Source: a virus. From it: a stretch of 63,433 nucleotides of DNA. Shown piece by piece: positions 8,132 through 29,477 of the stretch. Positions within the stretch are counted from its first letter, which is position 1. Every line of letters starts with the position of its first letter. Position numbers and translations under genes: made by a program. Location of the stretch: positions 1-63,433 of the IMG/VR virus record IMGVR_UViG_3300019860_000021; one strand, written 5' to 3'. A model generated the notes under the pieces. That model saw only the letters and a list, made by a program, of their open reading frames with translations. It did not search any database and was not told where the DNA came from.

Positions 8132-8644
8132 ATGCACGCGAGTGAGAGATGGCAGCGACTAGCAGAACTCCTAGCCGCACGCCGGGCGCGGCTGAACCCT
8201 GAATGGGCAGACCGCACCAGGTTCTGCTCCGACACCGATCTCAGCTACCGGTCGCTGTCCGACCTCGAAAACGGGCGGCGCGACAACTACAGCCCGGCCT
8301 GGTTAGCGAAGGTGGAACGCGCCTACCAGCTCAAACCGGGAGCGATCAGAAGGTACGTCGACAATGAGGTCGACACGCTGGAAACCTGTGGCAGCGGCGC
8401 CCCCTCAGAGCCGCTGGCCTCAATGCAGCGTCCTGCTGAGGACTCCCCCTCCCCTCAGCAGGACGATTGGGTTGAGGGAGTGTCGTGGTGGCCGTCCCGA
8501 CGTGACCCGGCTCTGCGCGTCTACCGGATGCGGTGGCTGGATGCCAATGGCCGTCGGCATGAGTACATCACTGAAGCTGACCGTGAAGTGTCACCGTCTG
8601 TGATCGTTGAGTATCTGGAGCGTAGGAAAAGCGAAGCGATGTAG
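8132..8644 (+). CDS. HTH regulator (candidate repressor), first gene of the rightward arm
   Basis: ORF 8060.. trimmed to the ATG at 8132. HTH-like DLSYRSLSDLENGRRDNYSPAWLAKVERAY. Divergent from the Cro-like gene. Confidence 0.6.
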   Translation: MHASERWQRLAELLAARRARLNPEWADRTRFCSDTDLSYRSLSDLENGRRDNYSPAWLAKVERAYQLKPGAIRRYVDNEVDTLETCGSGAPSEPLASMQRPAEDSPSPQQDDWVEGVSWWPSRRDPALRVYRMRWLDANGRRHEYITEADREVSPSVIVEYLERRKSEAM

Positions 8645-8671
8645 AAGAGCCGGCCCCGCTACGTGTGAAAA

Positions 8672-8709
8672 CAGTCGCCGTGTCGCTCACGTACGGCGGC
8701 TGTTTTTTT
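8672..8709 (+). terminator. rho-independent terminator
   Basis: cagtcgccgt / acggcggctg stem followed by T7, 28 nt after the stop at 8644. Confidence 0.75.
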
Positions 8710-8823
8710 CATGCACATAAACATCACAAAAAAACACCAAAACAGGTAACGTGTCTCTACCCACCAAAAAAGGGCGCTGCTGCACCAGGTCAATGGCGAT
8801 CAGCTCGAGGGGGGAGGGATGCA

Positions 8824-9087
8824 TTGGCCACCCAGCAGGCACGAGCAGCCGTGCACGTCACCATTCACACCCGCGCCGAGGGAGCACCAGTAGAAGTGTC
8901 CCGCATAGTCGGGGCCGCCACCACACTCCATATTCGCGAAGGCACCACCTGCCAGGAGATCTCCCACGCCATAGGTGAACACCTCAACGGCGACGAGATC
9001 GCCTCATTAACCCGAATTTTTGCTGATCACGGACTCGTTCTAAACCGCACCCCAGAACGCGAAATTCTGCGAACAGATTTCACATAA
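8824..9087 (+). CDS. hypothetical protein (87 aa), start uncertain
   Basis: ORF 8665.. begins inside the terminator, so it was trimmed to the TTG at 8824 after GGGAGGG. Lower-GC 3' half (moron-like). Confidence 0.35.
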   Translation: MATQQARAAVHVTIHTRAEGAPVEVSRIVGAATTLHIREGTTCQEISHAIGEHLNGDEIASLTRIFADHGLVLNRTPEREILRTDFT

Positions 9088-9149: not shown

Positions 9150-9194
9150 TTCTGGCGCGGAGACCCCGGGCTTCAGCCCTGGGGAGGAAGTCAA
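9150..9194 (+). repeat. solo IS200/IS605-type end hairpin
   Basis: 9150-9190 is 41/41 identical to the reverse complement of 25413-25453 (left end of the tnpB element). It ends in GGGGAGGAAGTCAA like the element's right end. Confidence 0.75.
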
Positions 9195-10750
9195 CCCCCC
9201 ACAGGACCGAACACGATACGCACCATCTCCTCCACCGGCGGCCTCGTATTTCGCCCCGGAACCCGCGCAGGCAGCACCCGAATCTCCCTCGTCACTGCCC
9301 GCAGCGCAGCCCTACGCTGGTCCAACTCCCACTCCTGCCACCACGCCCACACATCACTGGCACCCACCAGCTGCCCCACCAGCGGATCCACCAGACGAGG
9401 CGTAGCCTCCTTACGAAGCTGCTCAAGACGACGCTGCAAAGCCCGCTCCCGAGCCGAGGCAATCCGCGGCGTCACCAGCCCCACCGCGACATCCTCCTCC
9501 AGCTGGCGCAGCTCCTCCTCAATTTTGAGGATCTCAGCACGCGCCCGCTCTATCACCCCAGGGTCCTCCTGCACCGCGAACGCCTCGACAACATCAGGCC
9601 GAGACAGCTCCCGGATGAGCAGCGCCTCTACCGCCTCATCCAGCCAGTCGGCACGCCGCGTCACATGCCCCATCGGCGCCCCCTTGTACACGCCGTTACA
9701 CCGGTACCGCCACCTGGCCGGATCATCCCCCGCAGGTCGGCCTCGTCGAGACCGGGGCACGGCTCTGATATCACCGCCGCACACGTCACAGATAGCGATC
9801 CCTGACAACAACCACCGCGCCGCCGCATCCCGAACGTACCGTTGCCCTGTCGCTGCGGACCGTTGTTTAGTGCGGTTGAGCGCGGCCTGCACCTCAGCCC
9901 ACTCCTCCACAGAAAGGATTGGCTCCCACTGGCCCTGGGCGACTTCCTTGCCCTTATAGGTGCGTATCCCCTTGAGTTCGGGGCGGCTCATCACACGGCG
10001 CAGGTTCGCCGGCACCCAGCCCAGCGACACGCGCTCCCTGCCCCTGGAGTCCACGTACTTCTCCCCCGCTACACGACCTTTATCAGTGGGGATACGGCGA
10101 CGGTTCAGCTCTTCTGCGATCCAGCTGAGAGACCTGCCCGCTCGGAGCCAGCGGGCGATCATGCGGATCACCTCGGCTTCATCCGGGTCCGGCTCTTGGC
10201 CGATCAGCCGACCGGTGGCAGGGTCGTAGCGGCGTCGATACCCGTAGCCGGGCACGCCTGCGGGCCTGCCTCGCTCGGCGTTGGCACGCTGGGAGCGGTG
10301 GATGCGTTCGGAGAGCTGATCGACTTCGAGGACGCCTTGGGTGGCCATCATGTCGAGGATGTGCATCTCGTGGGGGTTTTCGGCCCGGTAGACGCTGCTG
10401 CCCACGAGGATGCGGAGCCGACAGTCGATGGCGAGCTCTGCGAATTCTGCCCACTCGGTTCTTCTCCGGGTGGAGCGGGAGAGTTCCCAGAAACCGACGG
10501 CGTCCACCTCGCCGCGGCGGATGATCTGGAGGAGGCGCATCCAGTTGGGACGGTCCGCCTTTGAGTACCGGGATGCGGGGACGTCGTTGTCGGCGAGCTC
10601 GGCGACGATGTCCCAGCCGAGGCGGTCAACGGTGAGGCGGAGATCGGCCAGCTGTTCTTCTACGGATGCTTTTTCTCTGCGGTCGAGAGATACGCGCACG
10701 TAGAGGGCGACGCGGGTGCGCTGGTCTTCTATCAGGTCTGTGTTTTTCAC
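9191..10750 (-). CDS. int: large serine recombinase (integrase)
   Basis: Resolvase-type N-domain VALYVRVSLDRREKAS, recombinase domain, Zn ribbon CDVCGG...RYRCNG and a coiled-coil C-terminus. GTG at 10750 (the ORF track runs to 10969). Confidence 0.9.
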   Translation of the reverse strand: MKNTDLIEDQRTRVALYVRVSLDRREKASVEEQLADLRLTVDRLGWDIVAELADNDVPASRYSKADRPNWMRLLQIIRRGEVDAVGFWELSRSTRRRTEWAEFAELAIDCRLRILVGSSVYRAENPHEMHILDMMATQGVLEVDQLSERIHRSQRANAERGRPAGVPGYGYRRRYDPATGRLIGQEPDPDEAEVIRMIARWLRAGRSLSWIAEELNRRRIPTDKGRVAGEKYVDSRGRERVSLGWVPANLRRVMSRPELKGIRTYKGKEVAQGQWEPILSVEEWAEVQAALNRTKQRSAATGQRYVRDAAARWLLSGIAICDVCGGDIRAVPRSRRGRPAGDDPARWRYRCNGVYKGAPMGHVTRRADWLDEAVEALLIRELSRPDVVEAFAVQEDPGVIERARAEILKIEEELRQLEEDVAVGLVTPRIASARERALQRRLEQLRKEATPRLVDPLVGQLVGASDVWAWWQEWELDQRRAALRAVTREIRVLPARVPGRNTRPPVEEMVRIVFGPVGG

Positions 10751-10767
10751 ATCACTAATAGTGCCAT

Positions 10768-10823
10768 CTCTGGTGTGTCTATGTAATAATATGGTCGCAT
10801 ACTGATAGCTAGACACACCCGAG
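10768..10823. other. candidate attP
   Basis: ctcTGGTGTGTCTA N28 TAGACACACCcgag is a 14-nt inverted repeat with one mismatch (10/10 core). The AT-rich centre lies 18 bp upstream of the int start. Confidence 0.45.
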
Positions 10824-10900
10824 TGGGTGTGGCGGCCCCGAACTGGTGATGCGACCACCAGCCGGGACCTCACCCGATCCTGGAAGGAGCAGGATGGGCT

Positions 10901-11029
10901 ATGAAAAGCGTAGCCGTAGCAGCGGAGGACCGCTGCACCGACCCAGGCCACACGTGGGTCACCATCCAAACGGCGGGCGGCCCGATCGTCACCCGCTGTC
11001 AGACCTGCGGCCGAAAGTGGGAGGGCTGA
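10901..11029 (+). CDS. 42-aa Zn-ribbon-like protein, tentative
   Basis: ATG at 10901 lies 11 nt after AAGGAG: MKSVAVAAEDRCTDPGHTWVTIQTAGGPIVTRCQTCGRKWEG. The stop overlaps the next ATG (TGATG). Confidence 0.4.
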   Translation: MKSVAVAAEDRCTDPGHTWVTIQTAGGPIVTRCQTCGRKWEG

Positions 11030-11412
11030 TGTCCTCCATGCCGCGTTGCACCGTCGTCTCGTTCGGGTACGGGCACGGCCCGGCCCCCGAGGGGGACGTC
11101 ATCGTCGACCTGAGGGAGCTCCTGCACCGTCCCCTCCCTACCGCGTTGCGGACTATGGACGGTCACGACACCTGCATCAAGCACTGGGTGGAGAACACGC
11201 CTGGCGCGTGGGCGGTGATCAACGGCGTCGTGGACATGGTCCGCGCAATCCTCGCTGAAGCCCCGCACCGGAACGTGCAGATCGCGGTCGGCTGCACCGG
11301 CGGTCGGCACCGTTCTGTCGTGGTCGCCGAAAAGATCGGCCGGGGTCTGGAGCAGAGCGGATACCTGGTCGAGGTCGATCACCGGGACATGCACCGCGCG
11401 CTCGTGGCCTAA
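11029..11412 (+). CDS. RapZ C-terminal-domain-only protein
   Basis: SFGYGHGPAPEGDVIVDLRELLHRP...IAVGCTGGRHRSVVVAEKI...DHRDMH parallels the RapZ/YvcJ C-domain (recalled: SFGFKHG..DADYVFDVRFLPNP..AIGCTGGKHRSV). No P-loop N-domain. Confidence 0.7.
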   Translation: MSSMPRCTVVSFGYGHGPAPEGDVIVDLRELLHRPLPTALRTMDGHDTCIKHWVENTPGAWAVINGVVDMVRAILAEAPHRNVQIAVGCTGGRHRSVVVAEKIGRGLEQSGYLVEVDHRDMHRALVA

Positions 11413-11576
11413 TCGGCCACGTCCCGTGTCTGGATTTGACCCACATTTGTTCGTAGCGTCCCCTAGCCCACCTCGTGTGGTGGCTCTGGCACCCGCCCCC
11501 CTTCCCCAGTCGCGAGTCGCGTCCTGGCGGGTGCCGGGGCGGCCACACGGCCGACCCCTCACACAGAAAGGAACAC

Positions 11577-11645
11577 ATGGAAGCTCAGCTCCGCGACTAC
11601 GAGCGGACCCTCAGTCTCATGCGCCACCTGCAGAAGAAGAAGTAG
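11577..11645 (+). CDS. 22-codon micro-ORF, speculative
   Basis: CACAGAAAGGAACAC-ATG gives MEAQLRDYERTLSLMRHLQKKK, followed by a 10-bp GC hairpin. Confidence 0.2.
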   Translation: MEAQLRDYERTLSLMRHLQKKK

Positions 11646-11732
11646 TAGCCGAGGGCGGCCCGCCCGCAGCGTCCCCAAGTCCGGGCGGGCCACGTCCCCA
11701 CCGTTACGCGAACTAGTGAGGAGGTTTCCAGC

Positions 11733-11966
11733 ATGCCACGTCTGCGTCGAAGGGACCTTCTCGCCATGCGTTTGTTCATACTCGCCGCCTACACCGTTGC
11801 CGCTGCGCTGGTCGCGTGGACGGGCCGGGACTCGGCCTGGTGGTGGGTGCTGCACTTCACCGGCGCGCTCGCCGGGCTCTGCGCGGTGTGGATTGCTCTC
11901 GACTCGGTTCCCGCAGACGAGGGCACCCCAGACCAGGCAGAGCAGTACTTCAGGGAGGACAGGTGA
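11733..11966 (+). CDS. small membrane protein (77 aa)
   Basis: GAGGAGG SD. Two hydrophobic segments (LFILAAYTVAAALVAW, VLHFTGALAGLCAVWIAL). Confidence 0.55.
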   Translation: MPRLRRRDLLAMRLFILAAYTVAAALVAWTGRDSAWWWVLHFTGALAGLCAVWIALDSVPADEGTPDQAEQYFREDR

Positions 11967-13492
11967 CAGCAGAGACAGTGGAAGCTGCTGAGGCTGCGCC
12001 GCCGACACCGGGGCCTCCGGTGATCACGGTGACGGCCGAGCCTGTGGACGACGATCAGTCCACCGCCGACGCGACGAAGGAGAAGCAGGAGAAGGAAGAG
12101 GAGGCTCCGTTCCCGGCTGGCCAGGTGCTGTTGGGTGCCGGATCAGCGCTGACCCTCAGCTCGGTGGCGTTGGCGTCCGCGGTGGGCCCGTGGGGCCTGC
12201 TGTTGGCGCCGGGCGCAGTTGCTGTGGGTGGCGGGGTGTTTCTCGCTACCCGGGGCCGGAAGCGTTCAAAGCGCGGCCGTTCCTCCGAGCGCTTTGGTGG
12301 TGCCCGCAGTGGCGCAGGGGCGCGGCCTGTGGGTCGCGTCGGTGGCGCGCGGCTCGGCGGTGGTGGCCGCCGTAGCAGTGGCGGTGGTCGTGGCGGGGTT
12401 TCTCCCACGCATGGTGGGGGTCGTCCTGCTGCGGCCCGGTCGGTGGGGTTGGGTGCGCGGCCTGCTCCGACATCGCGCACTGCCCCGTGGGCTCGTGGTG
12501 GGACTCCTCGTCCCGGTGCTGGTGGGCGCGCGGTGGTAGCGCCGCCGCTGCGGCTGCGCCCTGCTGCGGGTGCTGGTGGCCGAGTGCCAGGTGGTGGCGC
12601 TGGCGTCCGCCCTGGTGGTGGGGCTTCCCGTCGCGTGGGTCGCGGCAGTGGTATGGGCCCGGCTCCCCGCAACCGGTGGGGTGCCTCCCAGCAGCCTTCG
12701 GCGCATCCTCGTGGTGGGCTGCGTCGGGCTGTGCGTGCTGCCGGCCGCAGGGCCGCTGATTGGGCAGATGACCGTAGCGGTCGGCGTCTGTCGACTGGGT
12801 GGCGGGCCGCTAAAGACCAGCCGGGATTCCGCGCGGCGCACAAGGCTGCTCGGGACACGCTCCGCAGCAAGAAGCGGGGGCCTGCTACCGAGGTGGCGGC
12901 GCTGTTGGTGGCGGTCGCGTCATGGCTGCGCAGCCTCTGGGCGCGTCGGCAGGACAGCGGTGGCGCCAAGGAAAAGGACAAAAAGAGCAAGAAGACTGCG
13001 ACTGCGTCGGCTGTGTCGCAGTCGGAAGTGGTATCCCCCGCGGGAGACGCCGACGTCGAGGAAACCCCGCCCAGGGAGACCACCCCTCCTCCCTCGGGTG
13101 AGGAGGACTCCCCCGAACACACATCAACCACCCACACGACTAGAGGAGGTCGAGTGAGCACGTTCCCGCTGCTGGAAATCGCCGCTGAGATGCAGAGCGC
13201 GGCAGCCAAATACAGCCCCGAGACAATGTGGCAAGTCATAGCGGACGCTGAACAGCTGCCCGGGGTGATCGACTCGGTCGCCTCCAGCATCCGCATCTAC
13301 CTGGAGCGGCTGGTGTCAGAACAGTACCCGGTCGACACCGCGGTGATTGACCAGCTCGGCGAGGTGTACCGGAGCCTCAAAACGGCGGCGGCGCAGGCCG
13401 AGGAAGTCGGTCCGATGATCCGCAACATTCACCAGCACGACGTGGACCGGCGTGAGGCGCCCCGCGGGGACGAGACCCGCTGGAACGTCTAA
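11963..13492 (+). CDS. membrane-associated Gly/Arg-rich low-complexity protein with structured C-terminal domain
   Basis: GTG at 11963 overlaps the upstream stop (GTGA). TM-like LLGAGSALTLSSVALASAVGPWGLLLAPGAVAVGGGVFLA, about 200 aa of R/G-rich sequence, then a helical C-domain. Confidence 0.6.
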   Translation: MTAETVEAAEAAPPTPGPPVITVTAEPVDDDQSTADATKEKQEKEEEAPFPAGQVLLGAGSALTLSSVALASAVGPWGLLLAPGAVAVGGGVFLATRGRKRSKRGRSSERFGGARSGAGARPVGRVGGARLGGGGRRSSGGGRGGVSPTHGGGRPAAARSVGLGARPAPTSRTAPWARGGTPRPGAGGRAVVAPPLRLRPAAGAGGRVPGGGAGVRPGGGASRRVGRGSGMGPAPRNRWGASQQPSAHPRGGLRRAVRAAGRRAADWADDRSGRRLSTGWRAAKDQPGFRAAHKAARDTLRSKKRGPATEVAALLVAVASWLRSLWARRQDSGGAKEKDKKSKKTATASAVSQSEVVSPAGDADVEETPPRETTPPPSGEEDSPEHTSTTHTTRGGRVSTFPLLEIAAEMQSAAAKYSPETMWQVIADAEQLPGVIDSVASSIRIYLERLVSEQYPVDTAVIDQLGEVYRSLKTAAAQAEEVGPMIRNIHQHDVDRREAPRGDETRWNV

Positions 13493-13508
13493 GGAGGAGT
13501 GGAGAGCA

Positions 13509-15494
13509 ATGGCGAAGAAGGTGGACTGGGGGCTGAAAAGTAACGGCCCCGTCGTCAACGGCCTCCAGGCCGCCTTGGGCCTGGGCGCGGTGACCGCTGT
13601 GGCCGACTATGCGGCCATCCACCCCATCTGGGCGTTGGGTGCGGCCGCGGTGGGTGCGGGAGGCACGCTGCTGGTGCGGGGCATGCAGTCCCCTAACCGG
13701 GTGATCGCTGACCTGGCCCGGTGGGCGGGTGCTGGGGGCTGGTCGTTCAGCCTGCTCTCGGGGCTCGCTGACTGGAGTGTGGGTTCGGTGGCCACGCTGG
13801 CTGGGGGTGCGGTGCTCGCATCGTGCCTGGGCCCCGCCATTGACCGGCGTGAGCAGGCCGCGGCGGCCGCGCTCGCGTCGGGTGGCATTTCTAGTGGCGG
13901 GTTGATGCTGGGGTCGACTGCGCGGGAGTGCGCGCAGTGGCAGCAGGCTTTGGTCCGCGTGTACGGGCAGGTGCTGCGTGGCGTGGTTGTGGAGAACGTG
14001 CGCGAGTGGCCCAACCGGTACGGAAAAGACGTAGATGTACTTCTGCCTGCGAACGGAGTCACCTCCGATGCGCTGCGCCGTGGCCTTCCCGGGTTGGCCA
14101 CGGTGATGGATTTGCCGCGTGGCTGCCCGATTGAGCTGGTGGAGCCGGAGGGAAGCCGACGGCGCGTGGTGCTGCGGGTGGCCACGGTCAACAGGTTGGA
14201 TGCTGACATTCCCTACCCGGTAGACGGGGCGGGGGTGGAGTCGATCCTGGAGGGCATCCCGTTTGGGGAGCACGCGGACGCGTCGATTGCGTCGGCGCCG
14301 ATCCGTGAGGACTCGTGGCTGATCGTCGGTAAACGCGGGTCGGGGAAGACGACGTTGTTGCACGGGTTGACTGCGACGATCGGCTCCTGTCGGGATGCTC
14401 TGGTGTGGCACATCGATCTTAATGGTGGCAGCCTGACGCAGCCGTGGATCGAGCCGTGGCTGCGGGGTGAGGTGGCTCGTCCTCCGGTGGACTGGGCGGC
14501 GCCCACGGTGGATGAGGCGATCCTGATGATGCGGGCTGCGGTGCGGATGGCTAAGCACCGCAAGGTCGCCTACCGGGGGTTGAAGCGCAAGCACAACGTG
14601 TCGCTGCTGCCTATCAGCCCGGAGCTGCCCGCGGTGGAGATCATCATCGACGAGGGTGCTGAGGCGTTGGCTGCTGCGGGCCGTGGCAAGGTCGCTGAGC
14701 TGGCCAATCTGCTGGCGGAGATCCAGCGGATCGCGCGGGATGCGGCGATTAATGAGGTGATCTCCGCGCTGCGGGGTACGTCGGACCTGATCCCGGCGGC
14801 GATGACGTCGCAGACCGGGGTGTCCATTTGCATGCGGGTGGAGCAGGACAAGGAGCTGGCCGCGGTGTTCGGCTGGCATTCGGGAGTGGACTACCGGGAC
14901 CTGCGCCGCAAGGGCAGTGGGTTCGTCGGCACCGACCGGGGGATCCAGCAGTTCCAGTCGTGGAACATTCTGCCCGCGCAGATTGAGGAGATCGGGGTGC
15001 GGATCTCTCGGCAGCGCCCCGATTTGGATGCGGCGACCGCGCGGGCGGGCGGGGAGGAGTATGCGACCCGCTATGAGCGCATGCGGGAGCTGTTTGAGGA
15101 CCCGGATGCGCTTATCGACCCCGCTGACAGTGACAGCAGTGCTGTGCTGGCGCGTGCGGCGGCTCCGGTGGAGTCTGGCAGATGGACGGTGACTGCTGGG
15201 TGGGATGACCCTGGTGTGCGGCGTGAGCAGGTGCGGGTCGCGCTCGTCCCTGCTCGGGAGGACGAGGACATTGTGGAGCGGATCATCGCGCTGATGGATG
15301 AGCGGGGTGAGGACCGTATCCCTCGTGAGGTGGCCGCCCGGGAGTTGACGGGTGGGGATGATGAGGAGCTGCGCCGCCGGGTGGCTGAGGCTGGTGGGCC
15401 TGCGCCGCGGTCGATTCGCTACCGGGGGTTGCCGGCGCGTGGCTGGTATCGGCGGGATTTGGAGGCGGTGCGGGAGGTGGTGTCACAGGCGTGA
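13509..15494 (+). CDS. FtsK/SpoIIIE-family (TraB-like) DNA translocase
   Basis: AAGGAGG SD before the ATG at 13509. N-terminal TM segments, Walker A IVGKRGSGKTT, Walker B VEIIIDEGAE. Confidence 0.85.
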   Translation: MAKKVDWGLKSNGPVVNGLQAALGLGAVTAVADYAAIHPIWALGAAAVGAGGTLLVRGMQSPNRVIADLARWAGAGGWSFSLLSGLADWSVGSVATLAGGAVLASCLGPAIDRREQAAAAALASGGISSGGLMLGSTARECAQWQQALVRVYGQVLRGVVVENVREWPNRYGKDVDVLLPANGVTSDALRRGLPGLATVMDLPRGCPIELVEPEGSRRRVVLRVATVNRLDADIPYPVDGAGVESILEGIPFGEHADASIASAPIREDSWLIVGKRGSGKTTLLHGLTATIGSCRDALVWHIDLNGGSLTQPWIEPWLRGEVARPPVDWAAPTVDEAILMMRAAVRMAKHRKVAYRGLKRKHNVSLLPISPELPAVEIIIDEGAEALAAAGRGKVAELANLLAEIQRIARDAAINEVISALRGTSDLIPAAMTSQTGVSICMRVEQDKELAAVFGWHSGVDYRDLRRKGSGFVGTDRGIQQFQSWNILPAQIEEIGVRISRQRPDLDAATARAGGEEYATRYERMRELFEDPDALIDPADSDSSAVLARAAAPVESGRWTVTAGWDDPGVRREQVRVALVPAREDEDIVERIIALMDERGEDRIPREVAARELTGGDDEELRRRVAEAGGPAPRSIRYRGLPARGWYRRDLEAVREVVSQA

Positions 15495-15720
15495 CGGGGG
15501 TTGTGTCACTCCCGTGACGCTGTCACACGAGTGTAGCGTTCTGACCTGCGGTAACGCCGTGACGGGGGTGTTGCTGTAGGGGGAGAAACAAGGGGTTTCT
15601 TCCAGGGGCCCTGCTCTTTGGGGTGGGGTGTCACACCGTCACATCGTCACAGAGAAGGAAAGGGTGGCCCGGGGCGACCAAACCGGCGGGCCACCACCCA
15701 CAGAAAGGGGCGACACCATC

Positions 15721-17190
15721 ATGGCATCCACGGTTCCTATGTCAGATGACGTGGCGTTGGAGGAGATCGCCGCGTTTGAGGGGCGGTTGGGTGTAGAGCC
15801 TGGCCGCAACCAGCTGATGTCTGAGTTCGGTTGGGGTGGGTCTCGGGCGTCTCGGCTGCTTCGGCTGTATCGGGAGCGGAAGCAGCGGTCTGGGGCGGAG
15901 GCGGTCCGGTTGCTGCCCGGGCTTGAGGCGGACCGGTCTGAGGTGGTGGTCCAGCAGTCTGGGTCGGAGGCGGTCCGGTCTGGTGCCGTGGACCGGTCCG
16001 GTGAGCAGTCTGGTGAGCAGTCGGGTGGACCGGTCCGGAAGGCTGACGGGGTGGACCGGTCTGTCTCGTCTGGTCTGGGGCGGTCCAGTGAGGCGGTCCA
16101 GTCTGGTGGACCGGTCCAGCAGTCCGGGTCGGAGGCGGTCCGGTCTGTCTCCTCGTCTGGTCCGGTGGTCCGGTCTGGTGGAGCAGTCCGGTCTGACGGG
16201 GCGGCTCGGGGTGAGCAGTCCACCGGTCCGGACCAGGATGCTGCTGTCGGTGTCGAGGCAGCCCAGGCTGGACTGGTCCGGGTAGAAGGGCTGGTCCCGT
16301 CGCTGGACCGGTGCGAGCCTGATCCCTGGGTTGAGGGGTGGACTGGTGGTCCGGCAGACCAGTCCGAGGTGGATGGCGTGGTGGACCGGTCCGGTGTGGT
16401 GGCGCAGGCCAGCATGAGCGGACCGAATACTGGTCCGGTGGACCGGGTCGAGGCTCGGACTGAGTCGGGTGGTCTGGTCCGGTCTACCGCCCGGACGGGT
16501 GTAGCGGACCGGTCCGGTCCGGGGTCCTCTGCTGGTGTGGTGGACCGGTCCGGTCCGGGTGGTGCGGCTGGCCTGGTGGACCGGTCCGGTGGGGTAGTCC
16601 GAGACGAGGTGGACCAGTCCGGTCCAGTGGAGGCCGCCAGTGAACCGGTCCGGTCTGGGTTGGGTGAAGCCGGTCCGGCAGTCCAGGCGCAGCGGACCGG
16701 GGATGCGGACCCGCGGTCCGGCGACGGACCGGACCGCAAGCCGTGGGGGCTCATCATCGCGATCCTTGCGATCAGCCTGTCTGCGTTCACCGCCGTGTGG
16801 GGCGGATGGGTCGGACTAGGCAGAATGGTTGGGTTCGGCAAGGTAAACCTGCTGCCTGGTTTCGTTGCCGATGGTGGGTGGGCCACGATTGACCTGGCGA
16901 TCACCCTGCCCATCGGGATTGAGGCGTATGCGGCGTCCGCGCTGTATGTGGCGGTGGCTGGTCTGGTGCGAGGCGGGAGCCGTTGGTTCGCGGGGAGCAG
17001 TGCTGGGCTCTCGCTGGCCTTGGGTGCGTTCGGTCAGGCTGCCTATCACGTGCTGGATGCGCAGGGCCGCACGGTTGCGCCGGAGTGGATCGTGGTGTTT
17101 GTCAGCGTGTTGCCGGTCGTGGTGCTGGGGATGGCTGGTGTGCTGCTGCACCTGGTGCTGGAGGAGCGTAAGCATCGGCGTCGCCGTTAG
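15721..17190 (+). CDS. repeat-rich protein with C-terminal DUF2637-like (SpdB-like) 4-TM domain
   Basis: ATG at 15721. About 300 aa of degenerate (V/A)(D/R)RSG repeats. C-terminal LIIAILAISLSAFTAVWGGWVGLGRM...LPVVVLGMAGVLLHLV resembles DUF2637 of actinomycete conjugative elements. Confidence 0.7.
   Translation: MASTVPMSDDVALEEIAAFEGRLGVEPGRNQLMSEFGWGGSRASRLLRLYRERKQRSGAEAVRLLPGLEADRSEVVVQQSGSEAVRSGAVDRSGEQSGEQSGGPVRKADGVDRSVSSGLGRSSEAVQSGGPVQQSGSEAVRSVSSSGPVVRSGGAVRSDGAARGEQSTGPDQDAAVGVEAAQAGLVRVEGLVPSLDRCEPDPWVEGWTGGPADQSEVDGVVDRSGVVAQASMSGPNTGPVDRVEARTESGGLVRSTARTGVADRSGPGSSAGVVDRSGPGGAAGLVDRSGGVVRDEVDQSGPVEAASEPVRSGLGEAGPAVQAQRTGDADPRSGDGPDRKPWGLIIAILAISLSAFTAVWGGWVGLGRMVGFGKVNLLPGFVADGGWATIDLAITLPIGIEAYAASALYVAVAGLVRGGSRWFAGSSAGLSLALGAFGQAAYHVLDAQGRTVAPEWIVVFVSVLPVVVLGMAGVLLHLVLEERKHRRRR
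15895..16740 (+). repeat. array of GGACCGGTCC palindromes and CGGTCCGG half-sites
   Basis: Perfect GGACCGGTCC at 15990, 16027, 16108, 16383, 16506, 16542 and 16578. GGTCCGGACC at 16225. Many partial copies. Confidence 0.8.
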
Positions 17191-17213: not shown

Positions 17214-17249
17214 GGGGGGGGGAAGCTGGTGCTTCTCCCCCTTTTTTTT
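17214..17249 (+). terminator. rho-independent terminator
   Basis: G-run/gaagc tggt gcttctccccc followed by T8, 24 nt after the stop at 17190. Confidence 0.8.
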
Positions 17250-17376: not shown

Positions 17377-17997
17377 ATGGCCACCATCACCGCCGCCGAC
17401 GCCGCCGCCCGCGCGGGCCGCACCGTCGACACCATCCGCCACTGGTGCCGCATGGGCGCCGTCCGCGCCACCAAGGTAGCTGGCCGGTGGGCCATCGACG
17501 TCGCCTCCCTCGACTACCGCATCAGCCTCGACACGCAGGAGCCGACCATGCCCACACTGGTGTGCGAGCACACCACCGACCCCGACAACCCCTGCCGAGA
17601 CTGCCAGCGCAAGTTCCGCCCGATCATGTTCAAGCGGTACGTCGCCGCGCTCACCGAGGGCCTGGAGCTGCCGCCGCTGACCGGCACCCCCAAGCAGATC
17701 GCCTGGGCAGAGCAGCTGCGCGCCCGCAGCCTCGCGGGCAACTGGGAGGACGTAGAGCGCGGCCTGACCGACGAAGGCCGTGTCCTCAACGTGGTCTGGG
17801 AGGCCGGCTGGTGGGCGCCGGAGCCCGACGAGGAGGAGTTCGGGATCGAATACCCCAACTGGCAGCAGAAGCTCATCCCCCACGAGGAGCTGGCCCGCCT
17901 CCGCACCCTGGCGGAGGCCCGCGCGTGGATCGCCCGCGTTGTCGCGGAGCGCACCGACGCGGCCTGGTGGATCGACCCCTACCGCTACGGCTACTGA
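17377..17997 (+). CDS. MerR/excisionase-type HTH protein (206 aa)
   Basis: N-terminal ITAADAAARAGRTVDTIRHWCRMGAVRATKVAGRWAI is an HTH_17-like motif. Confidence 0.6.
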   Translation: MATITAADAAARAGRTVDTIRHWCRMGAVRATKVAGRWAIDVASLDYRISLDTQEPTMPTLVCEHTTDPDNPCRDCQRKFRPIMFKRYVAALTEGLELPPLTGTPKQIAWAEQLRARSLAGNWEDVERGLTDEGRVLNVVWEAGWWAPEPDEEEFGIEYPNWQQKLIPHEELARLRTLAEARAWIARVVAERTDAAWWIDPYRYGY

Positions 17998-18057: not shown

Positions 18058-18654
18058 ATGACCGTCAACGAGCGTCCCGCCTGGGAGCAGCGCATCCTCG
18101 ACACCCGCGAGGCGATCAACCGGGCGATCGCTGCCCACGACCAGGCCATCGCCGACGCGAAGATGGCCAACGCTCCGGTCTCCCAGATCGCCCGAGTCCT
18201 GGGCCGCCAGGACCGCACCGGCCTGTACAGGGCCATCCAGCGCGCCAGGGAGCGCACCATGCAGGCCGTGCCGCAGCCCCCGCACACGCCGGTCGCCTAC
18301 GTGCGCACCCGGCAGCGGGCCAGCGACCTGCGCCTGCGCGTTGAGATGGCGCTGCGCGCCCGCGGCATCGCCACCATGAGCGTGTGGCCCGACGTCTGGT
18401 ACCTGGGCATGGGCGGAGTGCCCCTCCTCCAGATCAACCTGGAGGAGACCACGCTCGCCGAGGGCCGTCCCGAGACGGCGCCGGGCGTGTACCGGGTCGT
18501 CGCCCGGGAGGAGCCCGAGGACGGCCTGCGGGTGCTGCGCACCGTGGAGTCCCGACGCCTGCCCACCCGCCGCAGCGAGGACGGCATCGGGTCCGTGACG
18601 GACGTCGACGCTCTCGCGGCGCTGTCCGTTGAACTCCTCGCCCCCTACTGCTGA
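18058..18654 (+). CDS. hypothetical protein with HTH-like segment
   Basis: 198-aa ORF. VSQIARVLGRQDRTGLYRAIQRA. Confidence 0.55.
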   Translation: MTVNERPAWEQRILDTREAINRAIAAHDQAIADAKMANAPVSQIARVLGRQDRTGLYRAIQRARERTMQAVPQPPHTPVAYVRTRQRASDLRLRVEMALRARGIATMSVWPDVWYLGMGGVPLLQINLEETTLAEGRPETAPGVYRVVAREEPEDGLRVLRTVESRRLPTRRSEDGIGSVTDVDALAALSVELLAPYC

Positions 18655-18706
18655 CATCGCCCCAGAACACGCCACGACAAGAAGGACAACCTGAAAGGAC
18701 AACCTG

Positions 18707-19312
18707 ATGCGCATCGAGAAGATCGTTAACTGCACCGGGATGCCCCTGCTGATCCCCCAGGGGGCGGGTGACGAGCACGAGTACGTCGAGTACCCGGCCG
18801 CGCGAGTGCCGGCGCGGGTTGTGACCGAGGAGGTCACCGTGGCCGGACTGGACGTGCGAGTCACCCGAGACCTCGGGGTGGAAGGGCTCCCCGACCCACA
18901 GGAGGGCGTCTACTACCTGGTTACCTCCCGGGTTGCGCTGGCCGCCCCGGACCGCACCGACCTGCTGGTCCCCTCGGACATCTACGAATGGGGGGACGGG
19001 CGGAAGGTGGCTGGGGCGCTGCTGCGCCCCGAGCCCACGCCCCGTGGGTGGGGCCGGGGTCTCCCCGACCTCTCCGCGGTCGCAATCACCCTGAGTGACC
19101 ACCACGGCACATGGGCGACCCAGGTCGTCGCCGAAAAGACCCGTGACGGGAGCTGGGTGGTCCACACCGACGCGTCCCCGGGGGACGGCAGCTTCCCCGG
19201 CCGCTACACAGGGCTCGACCAGGGCGCAGCCCTGGCGAAGCTCGCCGACCTGCTCCCTGCCGCCCAACAGCAGGGCCGGGTCTTCGAGGAGAAGCTCAAG
19301 AACCTCCTCTGA
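18707..19312 (+). CDS. hypothetical protein; N-domain paralogous to the middle of 28367..29365
   Basis: MRIEKIVNCTGMPLLIP...GLPDPQEGVYYLVTSRVALAAPDRTDLLVPSD aligns with MRIINLTPHDVTLVT...VLPPPQPGVVYVVARPVAERANRPDLVVPTN. Confidence 0.6.
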   Translation: MRIEKIVNCTGMPLLIPQGAGDEHEYVEYPAARVPARVVTEEVTVAGLDVRVTRDLGVEGLPDPQEGVYYLVTSRVALAAPDRTDLLVPSDIYEWGDGRKVAGALLRPEPTPRGWGRGLPDLSAVAITLSDHHGTWATQVVAEKTRDGSWVVHTDASPGDGSFPGRYTGLDQGAALAKLADLLPAAQQQGRVFEEKLKNLL

Positions 19313-19323
19313 CCGGCCGACGT

Positions 19324-19405
19324 GAGGGACTGCTCCCACCTGGAATGGGAGTGGTCCCTCCCCTATCACAGGCGTCCCCGTCTAAGCTTGGTGGGCGGGG
19401 ACGCC
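19324..19405 (+). terminator. two strong hairpins after the stop at 19312
   Basis: gagggactgctccca N7 tgggagtggtccctc (19324-19360) and ggcgtccccg N15 cggggacgcc (19371-19405). No U-tract. Confidence 0.5.
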
Positions 19406-19421
19406 TAACCATATGGTTTAC

Positions 19422-19633
19422 CGGTAGTTAGGCGGCGCAAGCCCCGGTCTTCAGGCCGGGGTAAGCCGCCAAGAACATTCTCGCCGCTGGACGGGCGGAG
19501 AGACTAAACGCCTGTGGAGGCGACGTAAGACCACCCTTTGGGGTGGCGGACGCCGGTGAAGCAGGAACCCACCGGAGCGCGGCGTGAGCCGCGCAGGAGG
19601 AATCTCCGGCATTCACGCCGGGGAGGACGTCAA
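19422..19633 (+). mobile_element. non-autonomous IS200/IS605-type MITE carrying an orphan omega-RNA scaffold
   Basis: Starts after TTAC (19418-19421). The LE-like hairpin ccccggtcttcaggccgggg is fused to the last codons of a tnpB (AKNILAAG..). Blockwise homology to the revcomp of 24128-24290. Ends ...GGGGAGGACGTCAA. Confidence 0.7.
19470..19633 (+). ncRNA. orphan omega-RNA (TnpB guide-RNA scaffold) candidate
   Basis: Conserved blocks ggcggagag..taaacgcctgtggag..gtaagacc..ggtgaagcaggaa..cccggc.ttca..ggggagga.gtcaa are shared with the tnpB-linked copy. The variable helices between them keep self-complementarity. Confidence 0.6.
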
Positions 19634-19738
19634 ACGGTAAACTAGCTGCAATAACCTCATAAAACGCGAGCCCGCCGGGTGCTGGGAACACCACGACGGG
19701 CTCTGACCCACCTACCTGACTACCCCAGGAGGCAGGCT

Positions 19739-19927
19739 ATGCATAAGCCTAACCCCATCGTGCCCAAGCTCGGGCACGACCCTCACTCTTTCCCCCAGCC
19801 GGGCACCCCCATCCCCGACTGGATCACCCTTCACCCCAAGATCACCCACTTCGACTTCGGCCACCGAAACCCAGCCCAGACCGTCGCAGCCAAGGCCGCC
19901 GAGTTCGTCCAGGGGGCGTCCAAGTGA
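19739..19927 (+). CDS. hypothetical protein (62 aa)
   Basis: ORF 19679.. trimmed to the ATG at 19739 after AGGAGG. The stop overlaps the GTG of the next gene. Confidence 0.45.
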   Translation: MHKPNPIVPKLGHDPHSFPQPGTPIPDWITLHPKITHFDFGHRNPAQTVAAKAAEFVQGASK

Positions 19928-21075
19928 GCGACGTCATCGAACTGGAAGCCCTCGACCAGCCCACCTTCACCCAGGTCGGACACTGGCTCATCTTCCGCCA
20001 CGACATCTCCCCCACAGCGCGGCACCTCTACACCGTCCTCGCCGCATTCGTGCACCAAGGACGCCGCAACACCGGTGACACCGAGGTGTGGCCCTCACTC
20101 AACCTGCTCGCCGTCATCCTCGGCCTCTCCAAGGGCGAATCCGTCACCCCCTATCTCGACGAACTCATCCAGGCCGACGTCATCCGCAAACGCTCCACCA
20201 CCATCGGCGGCATGAAGGCGCGGAACACCTACGCCATCCGGTTCAACCCGCCGCCCGGCACTCCGGAGGCGAACGGGCTCGGAGACCTCCTGGCCCCGCT
20301 CAAGGAGATCGCCAGCGACCCGAAGGCCATGAGCCGGGCAGCCAAGGAGGTGCGCGCGACGATCAACGAGCGGCGGGAGCGGGAGAAGCAGGCACGCGCC
20401 GGACAGTCCGGGAAAACCGCAGGTCGCGCCGTACCCCGGAAAAGCGGGGTACGTACCCCAGAATTCCGGGGTACGTACCCCCGAAAACCGGGGTGGAACA
20501 ATACGAAGGTCGAACAATACGAAGGTCGTCCTCTTCTTCCCGCGCGCGCGGAAGCTGCGGCGCCGCCTCGACCTCGGCGCAGCGAGGAGGAAGAGAAGAA
20601 CAACACCAAGGGTCAGAAGGGGTGTTCTTCTGACCAGCAAAGGTGCACCACGTGCACCATGGTTGACCAGCGAAAGTGCACGACGTGCACCAAGAGGGCG
20701 GAAACCCCGGAAACCCGCGCCATCCGCGTCGTCCTCGATCGCCTCGCCGACCATTCCCCTACCGAGGACGAAGCCCGCGCCGTCATCACCCACATCCGCA
20801 ACCAGGCCACCCAGCGCGGCACCACGATCGCCCGCATCGACAAGTGGCTCGACGGCCGCGACCCCGACACCCTCCGGCACGACCTCGCCCACATCCGCGC
20901 ACAAACCACCCACCAAGGCCCGGGATGCGGCATCCACCGCCGCAAAACCCTCCCCTGCCGCATGTGCGCCATCGCCGCGGCAACCGGCGACGTCGAGCCG
21001 CTTCTCGCCGAGCTCAAACGCGTAGGCCCCGATGAGCGGCCCGACCTCGCTGACCTCTGCGCCGGCCACTCCTAA
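19924..21075 (+). CDS. replisome organizer / initiator-like winged-helix protein
   Basis: N-terminal HWLIFRHDISPTARHLYTVLAAFV...WPSLNLLAVILGLSKGESVTPYLDELIQADVIRKR is DnaD/organizer-like. Sits upstream of dnaB. Has an internal repeat cluster. Confidence 0.6.
   Translation: MSDVIELEALDQPTFTQVGHWLIFRHDISPTARHLYTVLAAFVHQGRRNTGDTEVWPSLNLLAVILGLSKGESVTPYLDELIQADVIRKRSTTIGGMKARNTYAIRFNPPPGTPEANGLGDLLAPLKEIASDPKAMSRAAKEVRATINERREREKQARAGQSGKTAGRAVPRKSGVRTPEFRGTYPRKPGWNNTKVEQYEGRPLLPARAEAAAPPRPRRSEEEEKNNTKGQKGCSSDQQRCTTCTMVDQRKCTTCTKRAETPETRAIRVVLDRLADHSPTEDEARAVITHIRNQATQRGTTIARIDKWLDGRDPDTLRHDLAHIRAQTTHQGPGCGIHRRKTLPCRMCAIAAATGDVEPLLAELKRVGPDERPDLADLCAGHS
20431..20690. repeat. ori-like cluster of palindromes and direct repeats inside the organizer gene
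   Basis: GGGGTACGTACCCC at 20446-20459 and 20468-20481 (22-bp phasing). gaacaatacgaaggtc x2 in tandem (20496-20527). ggtcagaag N7 cttctgacc (20611-20635). GTGCAC-N3-GTGCAC at 20643-20657 and 20676-20690. Confidence 0.55.
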
Positions 21076-21159
21076 AACCCGAGAAACGAAGAAGGGGCGG
21101 CAGCCTGCCGCCAAACAGGTGCTGCCGCCCCATTCCACAGAAAGGAACGCTCTACCATT

Positions 21160-22533
21160 ATGACACTCACACCCATCGCCCCTGCACGCACCGAACCCCC
21201 ACATGACCTCGCCGCTGAACAGGCCGTGCTCGGCGCGATCCTCACCGCCCCCGACCGGCGGCGCGCTCATGAACTTCTTGGTGAGGTCCTCGAGCTCGCG
21301 CCCCCCGCCACCTGGTATCGGCCTGCCCATGCGGTTCTTCTCGATCACCTGACCGCTCTCGCGGACGCTGACCAACCGTTGGACGCGATCACCCTGCACG
21401 ACCGGCTCGCGAAGACCGGTGATCACACCCGTACCGGCGGCGCCCCCTACCTGCACACTCTGGTGGAGCAGGCCGCGGTCGGGGCGACGGTGGGCCACTA
21501 TGCGCGCATCATCGCGGAAAAGGCCGTGCTGCGCCGGCTGATCCAGGCTGGGGCGCGCATCACCCAGTTCGGCCAGCAGGCCATCCCGGGCGCGGACGTG
21601 GACGACCTGGTGGAGCGGGCCCGGGATGAGGTCGACAGCATCGCGCGGACTGGTAGCGCGCACGACCCCGAGGTCACCACCCTGGCGGATGGGCTCGCCG
21701 GGTTTTTGGACCGGCTGGAGCGCGGCGACGCCGTGGCTGACGTGATCCCTGTGCCGTATGCGGATCTCGCGGACAAGCTGGTGGGTGGGGGGTTCGCGCC
21801 GGGCCAGCTGGTGGTGATCGCGGGCCGTCCTGGGCACGGCAAGACCACGATCGCGTTGGACATCATGCGGCACGCCGCCAAGAAAGGGAAGCGGGTGCTG
21901 TTCCATTCGCTGGAGATGACCCGAGACGAGCTGGACATCAAGCTGGCGGCGGCGGAAACCGGTATCGCCACCACCCAGCTCACTCCTGGCCCGAACGGTG
22001 CTGACCTCACTGATGACCAGTGGCGGAGGCTCGCCGACTATGTGGGGCGTGCTGCTGACATGGACATCACGATTGATGAGGCCGCCGACTGTTCACTGGC
22101 TCGGATCAAGGCCCGGGTGAACGCGATGGAGCGGCAAGGCCGGCTGCCGCATTTGGTGGTGGTGGACTACATCCAGCTGATGGACACCGCTCCGGCGGAG
22201 CGGAGGGATCTGCGGATCGCGGCGCTGTCGCGGGGGCTGAAGATCCTCGCGAAGACGAAGAAGATCGTGGTGGTGGCGTTGGCGCAGGCGCGTAGGGAGT
22301 CCGCGGATCGGGAGAACGGGGTGCCGAGGTTGTCGGATCTGGCTGAGTCCAGCGCGTTGGAAAAAGACCCGAATATTGTGCTGACGGTGGCTACGCCGCA
22401 TGTGGATGACCTGGAGCATGAACGGTCCGGGGAAACGATCATCAATGTGGCGAAAAACCGTGGCGGGCCGTTGGGGGAGGTAAGTTTGGCCTGCCAGTTC
22501 CACTATTCGCGCTGCGCGAATCTGCACCGGTAG
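21160..22533 (+). CDS. dnaB: DnaB-family replicative helicase
   Basis: N-terminal PHDLAAEQAVLGAIL, Walker A GRPGHGKTT, SLEM, VVDYIQLM, ESSALEKDPN. Confidence 0.92.
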   Translation: MTLTPIAPARTEPPHDLAAEQAVLGAILTAPDRRRAHELLGEVLELAPPATWYRPAHAVLLDHLTALADADQPLDAITLHDRLAKTGDHTRTGGAPYLHTLVEQAAVGATVGHYARIIAEKAVLRRLIQAGARITQFGQQAIPGADVDDLVERARDEVDSIARTGSAHDPEVTTLADGLAGFLDRLERGDAVADVIPVPYADLADKLVGGGFAPGQLVVIAGRPGHGKTTIALDIMRHAAKKGKRVLFHSLEMTRDELDIKLAAAETGIATTQLTPGPNGADLTDDQWRRLADYVGRAADMDITIDEAADCSLARIKARVNAMERQGRLPHLVVVDYIQLMDTAPAERRDLRIAALSRGLKILAKTKKIVVVALAQARRESADRENGVPRLSDLAESSALEKDPNIVLTVATPHVDDLEHERSGETIINVAKNRGGPLGEVSLACQFHYSRCANLHR

Positions 22534-22575
22534 GGCGCGGTTAGAGCAGACAGAGAGGAAGAAAAGAAAAAAAGG

Positions 22576-22603
22576 GGGGTGGTGGACCGCGCACCACCAC
22601 CCC
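22576..22603 (-). terminator. hairpin with flanking A/T run (terminator in the leftward sense)
   Basis: ggggtggtgg N8 ccaccacccc preceded by gaaaagaaaaaaa on the plus strand, which is a U-tract on the minus strand. Confidence 0.4.
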
Positions 22604-22646
22604 GCCCGTGGAGTATGTCGCCAGACGGAAGGCGGATCTATTATCG

Positions 22647-22669
22647 CACCCCCCTTCGGGGGTGGTTTT
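22647..22669 (+). terminator. small terminator-like hairpin
   Basis: caccccc cttcg gggggtg followed by gtttt. Confidence 0.45.
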
Positions 22670-22772
22670 AACGGGGAATACTCGGCCGCCTACAAACCCC
22701 CGGCCAGGTGGGGTCCCTACGCGCGAGGACGACGGATACGCCATCATCCTCAAACCCGGCCATACGAAACGA

Positions 22773-22820: not shown

Positions 22821-22826
22821 ATACTC

Positions 22827-24062: not shown

Positions 24063-24127
24063 CCCATCCCCCTCGATCCTCAGACATTGGACAAGAGAGC
24101 CAAGCGCACGCTCCCGACCCTCGTGTG

Positions 24128-29469: not shown

Positions 29470-29477
29470 GAGGACTC

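Follow-up and report, generated by a model that had tools for sequence, protein, structure and literature searches.

The 63,433-nucleotide IMG/VR virus record IMGVR_UViG_3300019860_000021 (the window, meaning the entire stretch of DNA analyzed here) contains four consecutive rightward open reading frames (ORFs), ORF1 to ORF4, one of which encodes a predicted TraB-like DNA translocase. The initial annotation had interpreted the four genes as a transfer block like that of the integrative and conjugative elements of actinomycetes (AICEs), carried within the genome of a tailed phage. The first 127 bases of the window are identical to the last 127, and because of this identity we conclude that the 63.4-kb assembly is complete and closed into a circle. 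Thermobifida phage P1312 (KT021004; 60,284 bp; host, T. fusca) is a phage of the same type, as it aligns to the entire window in reverse orientation at 83 to 98% identity and has the same gene order in the ORF1-to-ORF4 block (positions 11733 to 17190), where the two are 96.1% identical. The genomes differ in size, 60.3 kb for P1312 versus 63.4 kb for the window, and in the length of a linker within ORF4. Positions 35.5 to 58.8 kb of the window correspond to P1312 positions 1 to 23,319 at 98% identity and, by identity to the annotated P1312 genes, encode terminase, portal, capsid, adaptor, tail, and tape-measure proteins, with an amidase in the adjoining aligned block. A full virion gene set and lysis genes are present.

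The four ORFs and their coordinates were confirmed (Table 1), and hydropathy and sequence checks bore out what had been described of the hydrophobic segments, the stretch of ORF2 rich in Gly and Arg, and the Walker motifs in ORF3. Gene starts were refined by means of ribosome-binding sites (RBSs) and the N termini of homologs. ORF2 probably begins with a GTG codon that overlaps the ORF1 stop codon as GTGA, and a 558-amino-acid reading from position 11816 was set aside; ORF3 probably begins with an ATG codon immediately 3′ of AAGGAGGAG and the ORF2 stop codon. Judged from the sequence, ORF1 to ORF4 form one operon, because the starts are coupled and a strong terminator closes the unit. In P1312, the counterparts of ORF2, ORF3, and ORF4 are ORF64 (hypothetical), ORF63 ("DNA segregation ATPase FtsK/SpoIII"), and ORF62 (hypothetical), respectively, and ORF1 is unannotated. 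The P1312 paper took ORF63 to suggest DNA segregation, and its text does not mention conjugation (PMC4569894).

The ORF3 translocase and its relatives

ORF3 contains a Walker A motif (GKRGSGKT) and a Walker B motif (IIIDE). An AlphaFold model built from 39 homologs (predicted local distance difference test [pLDDT] score, 85.8) has four long N-terminal helices ahead of an ATPase core, and a disordered linker leads from there to a small C-terminal domain. The four helices, residues 33 to 142 of a 680-amino-acid reading (pLDDT, ~85 to 94), are the predicted membrane anchor, and their hydropathy is merely moderate because they are rich in Ala and Gly. A Foldseek search with the model retrieved TcpA, the coupling protein of pCW3 conjugation, and motor domains of FtsK (E values of 6e-17 to 1e-15; template modeling scores, normalized to the target, of 0.60 to 0.72), with EccC/EssC and HerA further down the list. 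Sequence comparison with the PDB returned TcpA alone (E = 0.07), and PHROGs placed ORF3 in an FtsK/SpoIIIE-like class of the category "moron, auxiliary metabolic gene and host takeover." When modeled alone, the C-terminal domain (pLDDT, 90) had the element order H-b-H-H-b-b-H, and its best fold matches, although weak (best E = 0.036), were all winged-helix DNA-binding proteins. The model thus includes a probable C-terminal winged helix, a feature that the initial annotation had wished to see checked. We conclude that ORF3 is, as modeled, a double-stranded DNA (dsDNA) translocase of the FtsK/SpoIIIE fold (TraB-like), the fold being settled by structure, and that by sequence it belongs to a divergent subfamily distinct from the plasmid_TraB equivalog. 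The family assignment made initially holds for the structure, the motifs, and the transmembrane N terminus but not for the Pfam FtsK_SpoIIIE model, as discussed below.

Comparison with P1312 revealed 40 synonymous and 9 nonsynonymous changes in ORF3, and the resulting ratio of nonsynonymous to synonymous substitution rates (dN/dS) of 0.077 was equal to that of the phage DnaB gene. We conclude that ORF3 is under strong purifying selection, and a decaying relic was rejected on the strength of that ratio. A role for ORF3 as the packaging ATPase was also rejected, as the phage has a normal terminase.

To the ORF3 sequence, a search of 5.8 billion proteins returned 82 clusters, all of which were actinobacterial and most of which came from Streptosporangiales. 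On a Streptosporangium chromosome, a homolog with 40% identity lies inside an AICE island of ~11 kb (locus L005). The island begins with genes for GntR, WhiB, small proteins, a 317-amino-acid DUF2637-like protein, and a 594-amino-acid ORF2 homolog, followed by tra, and continues with a 119-amino-acid gene, a DUF3631 Rep, an HTH_17 Xis, a tyrosine integrase, and tRNA-Ser, an order that is textbook AICE architecture (PMC2440964). The ORF3-family gene is the tra gene of this element and of a further AICE (L006), both integrated by tRNA-Ser. By tblastn, the family was found in 34 actinomycete plasmids, including a 23-kb Microtetraspora plasmid. The Tra protein of Nocardiopsis plasmid pSQ10, an ORF3 homolog, passes the Pfam PF01580 FtsK_SpoIIIE model (25.8 versus 24 bits). 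In Thermobifida halotolerans plasmid pTH1, tra lies among GntR, NUDIX, and ParA genes, and pTH1 also shares with the phage its DnaB helicase (50% identity) and replication organizer (30% identity to the helix-turn-helix [HTH] protein). As a separate observation, pTH1 (L010; NZ_CP063197) contains, at positions 30937 to 51770 and 18574 to 26090, both a type IV secretion-type conjugation set (MobF relaxase, coupling protein, and SCO6880-family protein) and a TraB-type module with GntR and NUDIX genes, and PLSDB types the plasmid as non-mobilizable.

Among phages, the family is found in P1312, in four Hiyaaviruses (Hiyaa, Galactica, Spocter, and Keanu; 33 to 34% identity), where it is annotated as "FtsK-like DNA translocase," and in the plasmid-phage ZL12, as well as in a metagenomic contig with terminase and portal genes, a Nocardiopsis prophage (L012), and 23 IMG/VR loci. 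Relatives were located in chromosomes, and the block is retained in relatives whose ORF3 proteins are merely 47 to 50% identical. A neighbor-joining (NJ) tree, built with no bootstrap support, placed the P1312-like translocases as sister to the plasmid/AICE clade and most other viral sequences in a separate clade; the Hiyaavirus translocases likewise fell in a separate clade of the family. The phage translocase thus did not group, in that tree, with phage-specific proteins of proven nontransfer role.

Two of these phage groups are among the closest known systems. In pZL12, a tailed-phage genome, one of the genes pZL12.73c-72c-71c encodes a TraB-like homolog of the ORF3 translocase (25.5% identity; E = 5e-20). 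The product of the gene immediately upstream of tra contains the C-terminal domain of ORF2 (E = 3e-6), and farther upstream is a gene for a membrane protein. As summarized in PMC3583192, which cites Zhong et al. 2010, conjugal transfer of pZL12 requires tra and two adjacent genes. In Galactica, gp98, labeled "membrane protein," carries the ORF2 C-terminal domain and lies directly upstream of gp99, and the locus gave no match to ORF4 or a DUF2637-like protein. FtsK-like genes are said to occur in many actinophages (bioRxiv 10.1101/2024.02.16.580700), and those of Hiyaaviruses are annotated by name only, with no stated function in the literature searched.

The block shares both homology and gene order with the transfer blocks of AICEs and plasmids, where the ORF2 and ORF4 domains likewise accompany tra, and in this respect the transfer-block claim is upheld. 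ORF3-family members are predicted, from their gene context, to serve as the tra genes of those AICEs and plasmids.

Partner proteins encoded with the translocase

ORF2 consists of an acidic N terminus, a hydrophobic membrane segment, a region in which Gly and Arg make up 44% of ~200 residues, and a conserved C-terminal domain of ~110 residues that ends in RWNV. It had no match in Pfam, NCBIfam, or PHROGs, and no described function was found in the literature. A hidden Markov model (HMM) of the C-terminal domain matched an ORF adjoining the translocase gene in 31 of 34 loci (upstream in 30), including those of pSQ10, pTH1, Galactica (gp98), pZL12 (pZL12.72c), and nearly all IMG/VR loci. The 594-amino-acid protein encoded upstream of tra in the Streptosporangium AICE has the ORF2 architecture throughout, with acidic N terminus, membrane segment, Gly/Arg-rich region, and C-terminal domain. 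This co-occurrence suggests that translocases of this TraB subfamily have ORF2 as an obligate partner. ORF1 likewise had no family match in Pfam, NCBIfam, or PHROGs, and a 74-amino-acid homolog (42% identity; E = 8e-12) occupies the same place in the Nocardiopsis prophage.

Family alignment divided ORF4 into three parts: at the N terminus a small HTH-like domain, then a linker of low complexity that is hypervariable, and at the C terminus a membrane domain of four helices. Close relatives range from 411 to 598 amino acids. The family of the membrane domain comprises 1591 representatives at an E value of ≤1e-3, in which the domain is found at either end of the protein. ORF4 itself matched nothing in Pfam, NCBIfam, or PHROGs, and none of 24 ORF4-family members matched Pfam DUF2637 at an E value of ≤1. 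The Pfam DUF2637 domain (PF10935) was carried by six of the eight retrieved homologs of the 317-amino-acid AICE protein, and comparison of the two families by hhalign aligned the ORF4-domain profile with the AICE protein profile at 98.7% (E = 2.6e-16) over 127 columns and all four helices. Reciprocal matches of HMM to sequence between the ORF4 domain and that DUF2637 subfamily gave E values of 1.3e-10 and 2.4e-11, scores that the composition bias of membrane helices may inflate. Alignment of the ORF4 profile to a single bona fide DUF2637 protein of pTH1 was negative, and the DUF2637 subfamily profile matched the same protein weakly (18.6%), so that the link is limited to one subfamily. These comparisons support the assignment of the ORF4 membrane domain as a divergent DUF2637-like domain; the ORF4 assignment, like that of ORF3 to FtsK, is made from structure and profile-profile evidence and not from Pfam.

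Gene order also associates ORF4-like proteins with translocases. In a Kibdelosporangium AICE (L013; GntR ... ORF4 homolog, tra, DUF3631 Rep, Xis, Int, tRNA-Pro), the ORF4 homolog is immediately upstream of the TraB-like gene, and in phage contig L016, a gene whose product matches Pfam DUF2637 is located two genes upstream of tra. The 724-amino-acid gene adjoining the ORF4 homolog in L013 and a 684-amino-acid gene in the same position in L011 were rejected as members of the ORF3 subfamily, although the former is still FtsK/TraB-like. Locus L011, on the chromosome of Micromonospora sp. WMMA2032, encodes at positions 10001 to 13005 an ORF4 homolog followed by the 684-amino-acid protein, which has no detectable family and may be a further, unrecognized type of translocase; the setting is an apparent prophage, with a Sipho_Gp37 tail gene upstream and tRNA-His nearby. 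Galactica gp96 and pZL12.73c matched neither the ORF4 nor the DUF2637 membrane-domain profile.

The initial annotation had likened ORF4 to SpdB-type spread proteins with a DUF2637-like domain. ORF4 is a four-helix membrane protein encoded directly after ORF3 in the predicted operon, as Spd genes are encoded with tra, and its relation to a DUF2637-like subfamily is supported by profile comparison. A Pfam DUF2637 match and a link to a characterized SpdB were not found: pIJ101 SpdB itself has no Pfam DUF2637 match, and neither it nor pIJ101 SpdA2 has a detectable counterpart in the phage.

Repeat arrays and genomic surroundings

An array of GTCAC/GTGAC motifs covers the last 13 nucleotides of ORF3 and the spacer between ORF3 and ORF4. 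Two inverted pairs of the form GTGTCAC-N4-GTGAC make up part of the array, which also includes single copies of the motif and an 8-bp direct repeat, GTCACANC, present three times. Its density of 9 copies per 220 bp is the maximum of the genome, where the next-best value is 4 and shuffled sequences reached at most 6, and the clustering had a Poisson P value of 8.4e-9 among 7012 k-mers tested. Across the genome, GTGTCAC by itself shows no enrichment, and clustering is the only unusual feature. Every copy in the array is retained in P1312. Moreover, an array with a GTCAC core is the densest of its locus at the same position in the Streptosporangium AICE (GGGTCACA, 9 to 10 copies) and in the Nocardiopsis prophage (14 copies, including five of GTGACACC). 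In a test for exact 7-mer repeats at the 3′ end of tra, the window was not significant, and ~6 of 33 loci were.

Arrays at this position have precedents in Streptomyces plasmids. The clt locus of pWTY27, whose TGACACC repeats are footprinted by TraA, spans 16 bp of traA plus the 159 bp that follow (PMC3583192), and in pIJ101, SpdA2 binds a conserved sps palindrome, CGTCACGTGACG (PMC4170104). The GTCAC array resembles the pWTY27 clt repeat and the pIJ101 sps site in shared position or half-site and is a candidate cis site.

A second array, composed of the palindrome GGACCGGTCC and variants, lies in the coding sequence of the ORF4 linker, which contains every copy of GGACCGGTCC (7) and of GACCGGTC (9) in the genome. 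The palindrome is read in two frames (VDRSG and GGPV), and the array is the second strongest k-mer cluster of the genome. Its core is also clustered in the linker of the homolog in the Nocardiopsis prophage (L012 positions 10171 to 10695). The arrangement recalls the sps sites embedded in the spdA coding sequence. In the Streptosporangium AICE, a different palindrome, CCGTACGG, occurs seven times within the ORF2 homolog (positions 8486 to 8911). Far from the operon, at positions 62650 to 62900 of the window, two inverted arrays of a 12-bp unit (CGGGAACCCTTC / GGAAGGGTTCC; 10 to 11 copies) are separated by ~100 bp; no other k-mer cluster of the genome is as significant (Poisson, 1.7e-21), and the arrays may be a regulator-binding, origin, or packaging site.

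Table 1. Features of the ORF1-to-ORF4 region and neighboring genes in the window
Feature	Positions	Strand	Basis or remark
Large serine integrase, divergent from operon	9191-10969	-	Resolvase, Recombinase, and Zn_ribbon_recom pass Pfam cutoffs
ORF1, small membrane protein, 77 amino acids, two hydrophobic helices	11733-11966	+	GAGGAGG RBS, hydropathy
ORF2, 509 amino acids	11963-13492	+	Probable GTG start, GGGAGGA RBS
ORF3, TraB-like translocase (predicted), 661 amino acids	13509-15494	+	Probable ATG start
GTCAC/GTGAC array, 9 copies, candidate clt/sps-like cis site	15482-15650		Motif clustering
ORF4, 489 amino acids	15721-17190	+	Probable ATG start at 15721
Palindrome array, GGACCGGTCC and variants	15930-16700		Within ORF4 linker coding sequence
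Intrinsic terminator	17214-17243	+	13-bp stem with 8 GC pairs, then T-run
Replication organizer, 383 amino acids	19924-21075	+	PHROG replication initiation and DNA-binding matches
DnaB helicase	21160-22533	+	50% identity to pTH1 helicase

The operon lies between a serine integrase and a replication module, as had been noted, with the qualification that a RapZ_C-like gene precedes ORF1 and three genes separate ORF4 from the replication organizer. The former gene (positions 10846 to 11412; Pfam PapZ_C, E = 7e-27) overlaps the start of the integrase gene, encodes a protein with a RapZ C-terminal domain, and is labeled "ABC-ATPase" in P1312. Just 3′ of the operon, a 206-amino-acid protein (positions 17377 to 17997) has a subthreshold N-terminal HTH_17/MerR-like HTH of the excisionase type and could be a recombination directionality factor or a regulator. 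A 201-amino-acid protein (positions 18707 to 19312) matches PADLOC Unk_01 ("unknown small protein, sometimes fused to CARF"; E = 4.6e-12) and two PHROGs of unknown function. Within the replication-organizer gene, five copies of GGGGTAC occur in 220 bp at position ~20431 and look like an iteron-type origin within an initiator gene. Elsewhere, positions 25463 to 29541 include ~3 kb that is additional or rearranged relative to P1312, beside the annotated IS605 OrfB transposase region of that phage, and positions 28235 to 29455 are a second copy, 83% identical, of P1312 positions 30687 to 31899.

The initial annotation had further ascribed AICE/plasmid architecture to the rightward arm. AICEs are compact (9 to 24 kb) and are defined by Int (usually a tyrosine integrase with a tRNA target), Xis, RepSA/RepAM/Prim-Pol, Tra, and Spd, by a GntR-type Kor and a NUDIX-type Pif, and by the absence of virion genes. 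The phage is 63 kb, has a full virion set, a serine integrase, and DnaB-type replication, and no RepSA/RepAM/Prim-Pol or tyrosine integrase was found in it; the element is not an AICE. The phage-plasmid type is represented by pZL12, a 90-kb extrachromosomal ParAB plasmid-prophage. The tra locus of the window phage is homologous to that of pZL12, but the translocases are distant, no ParAB is annotated in the window phage, and a serine integrase is present.

Predicted function and its alternatives

The compared systems are the TraB/clt/Spd systems of Streptomyces plasmids (pSVH1, pIJ101, and pWTY27) and the AICEs of the pSAM2 and pMEA types. Their likeness to the phage module lies in a membrane-anchored FtsK-like pump and membrane accessories in the operon, to which the phage module adds a probable counterpart of their C-terminal winged helix and a candidate counterpart of their repeats at the 3′ end of tra. 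They differ in that no plasmid_TraB equivalog, GntR-type Kor/TraR, or NUDIX-type Pif was found in the phage, and in that the host element is a 63-kb virion-forming phage. We favor, with a probability of roughly 0.55, the prediction that ORF1 to ORF4 constitute an intact, selected TraB-type dsDNA translocation module in a P1312-like tailed temperate phage. Modules of this kind power conjugation and intramycelial spreading in actinomycete plasmids and AICEs. The prediction builds on established homology, fold, synteny, purifying selection, and conserved position of the array.

Thermobifida is a mycelial bacterium, and the module may be envisioned as follows. ORF3 would assemble into a membrane-anchored, FtsK-like hexameric pump, and its winged helix, the N-terminal HTH of ORF4, or both would recognize the GTCAC array on circular phage DNA or excised prophage DNA. 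The pump would then drive array-bearing DNA through hyphal cross-walls or into touching hyphae, with ORF2, ORF4, and ORF1 as envelope-spanning, Spd-like accessory components, and the phage genome would spread within the mycelium independently of virions. That the array is bound, which way the DNA is pumped, when the operon is expressed, and that transfer takes place at all are predictions of this model. We suggest more tentatively, as a possibility only, that P1312-like phages have a second, capsid-free route of infection and that the ORF4 palindromes are a further protein-binding site. By such a route, circular dsDNA would be loaded at the GTCAC array onto ORF3 after infection or induction, and ORF2, ORF4, and ORF1 would form an envelope conduit into neighboring compartments or mycelia.

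Several results weigh against a transfer module. ORF3 and ORF4 fall short of the standard family models: Pfam FtsK_SpoIIIE (PF01580) did not match ORF3 even at an E value of ≤10, ORF3 scored 27.2 bits against a cutoff of 800 (E = 1.3e-6) for NCBIfam NF041214 plasmid_TraB, which was nevertheless its best NCBIfam match, and Pfam DUF2637 (PF10935) matched neither ORF4 nor its C-terminal 176 amino acids at an E value of ≤10. The winged-helix fold matches are weak, and pIJ101 SpdB matched neither the ORF4 nor the DUF2637 profile (probability, <1%). The GTCAC motif was chosen after the region had been inspected, its 5-bp core is short, and many of the more distant viral loci have no repeat at the 3′ end of tra. 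Neither a GntR-type Kor nor a NUDIX-type Pif was found among neighboring genes or in the P1312 annotation. Finally, P1312 showed lytic behavior, and its authors offered only "DNA segregation" (PMC4569894).

The suggestion of DNA segregation leads to a different function, in which the pump and its partners disturb or make use of host chromosome segregation and septation as hyphae develop or sporulate, for example by placing phage DNA into spores, with no intercellular transfer. Such host takeover agrees with the PHROGs category of ORF3 and with the grouping of FtsK-like genes with WhiB-like and Lsr2-like regulators of development in actinophage papers (bioRxiv 10.1101/2024.02.16.580700; PMC13587820), but we consider it unlikely, as the nearest relatives of ORF3 are the tra genes of plasmids and AICEs and not chromosomal ftsK, and the ORF2 and DUF2637-like partners, together with an array on phage DNA, indicate the element's own DNA as the substrate. 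The module could instead act on phage DNA within one compartment, aiding uptake after injection, partition, or retention, the last two through segregation of the prophage or replicon. The pIJ101 SpdA2/sps system, which shares the GTCAC half-site, affects segregational stability and not transfer (PMC4170104), and the module is located between integrase and replication genes. We regard this role as quite improbable, however, because neither a ParA/ParB partner nor an SpdA homolog was found in the phage, because membrane-anchored TraB-family pumps have been characterized as transfer and spreading motors (PMC4447253), and because small AICEs such as that of Streptosporangium have only this module as a candidate set of transfer genes.

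Defense or superinfection exclusion, with a membrane ATPase module blocking incoming phage or plasmid DNA, is very unlikely in our estimation. ORF3 weakly matches PADLOC mad8 (E = 6e-9) and the downstream 206-amino-acid gene matches mad1 (E = 9e-4), but the former match is confined to the ATPase core and the latter to 24 residues, such that both are limited to generic P-loop and HTH segments, and no other MADS components were found. HerA/FtsK-fold ATPases of defense systems do appear lower in the ORF3 fold search, and the locus sits beside the integrase in a typical moron position, yet full-length homologs and synteny point to tra loci. Exchange with plasmids is evident from the DnaB, organizer, and tra genes held in common with pTH1 and from the intermixed tree, and the block might on that account be an inert passenger, a recombination relic of a plasmid or AICE with no current function in the phage. 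The low dN/dS ratio of ORF3, the retention of the block in divergent relatives, and the intact frames, coupled starts, and terminator make that scarcely credible. All of these alternatives fit the synteny, the cis array, or the data on selection less well than a TraB-type translocation module does.

The novelty implied by the initial suggestion of a phage-AICE chimera with two horizontal routes is lower than it first appeared, since pZL12 is a published phage with conjugal transfer and since Spd-like and FtsK-like actinophage genes have been noted previously (PMC3583192, PMC4447253, and bioRxiv 10.1101/2024.02.16.580700). What is new here is synteny at the AICE level for a siphophage lineage of Thermobifida and Nocardiopsis that carries an integrase, together with the apparently obligate ORF2 partner domain, the relation of ORF4 to DUF2637, and the candidate cis arrays. 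The ORF2 C terminus, a DUF2637-like membrane protein with a predicted DNA-binding head, and a candidate cis site give a large, uncharacterized TraB subfamily a set of testable parts. To our knowledge, good genetic tools are lacking for T. fusca, and a self-transferring integrase/tra/clt cassette could be useful in that organism.

If the module works as its plasmid counterparts do, a tailed phage that looks virulent could, without particles, spread or lysogenize within or between mycelia. Such spread would change the reading of plaques, the view of how Streptomyces-like development contains phages, and the assessment of host range. The distinction among phage, plasmid, and AICE in genome mining would also be affected, because screens for Int, Rep, and Tra would label such prophages AICEs. 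Because related modules are found in Hiyaaviruses, in Micromonospora and Nocardiopsis prophages, and in at least 23 IMG/VR contigs, TraB-type conjugation would, if P1312-like phages do have the more tentatively suggested capsid-free route, belong to the ordinary biology of phages that infect mycelial actinomycetes.

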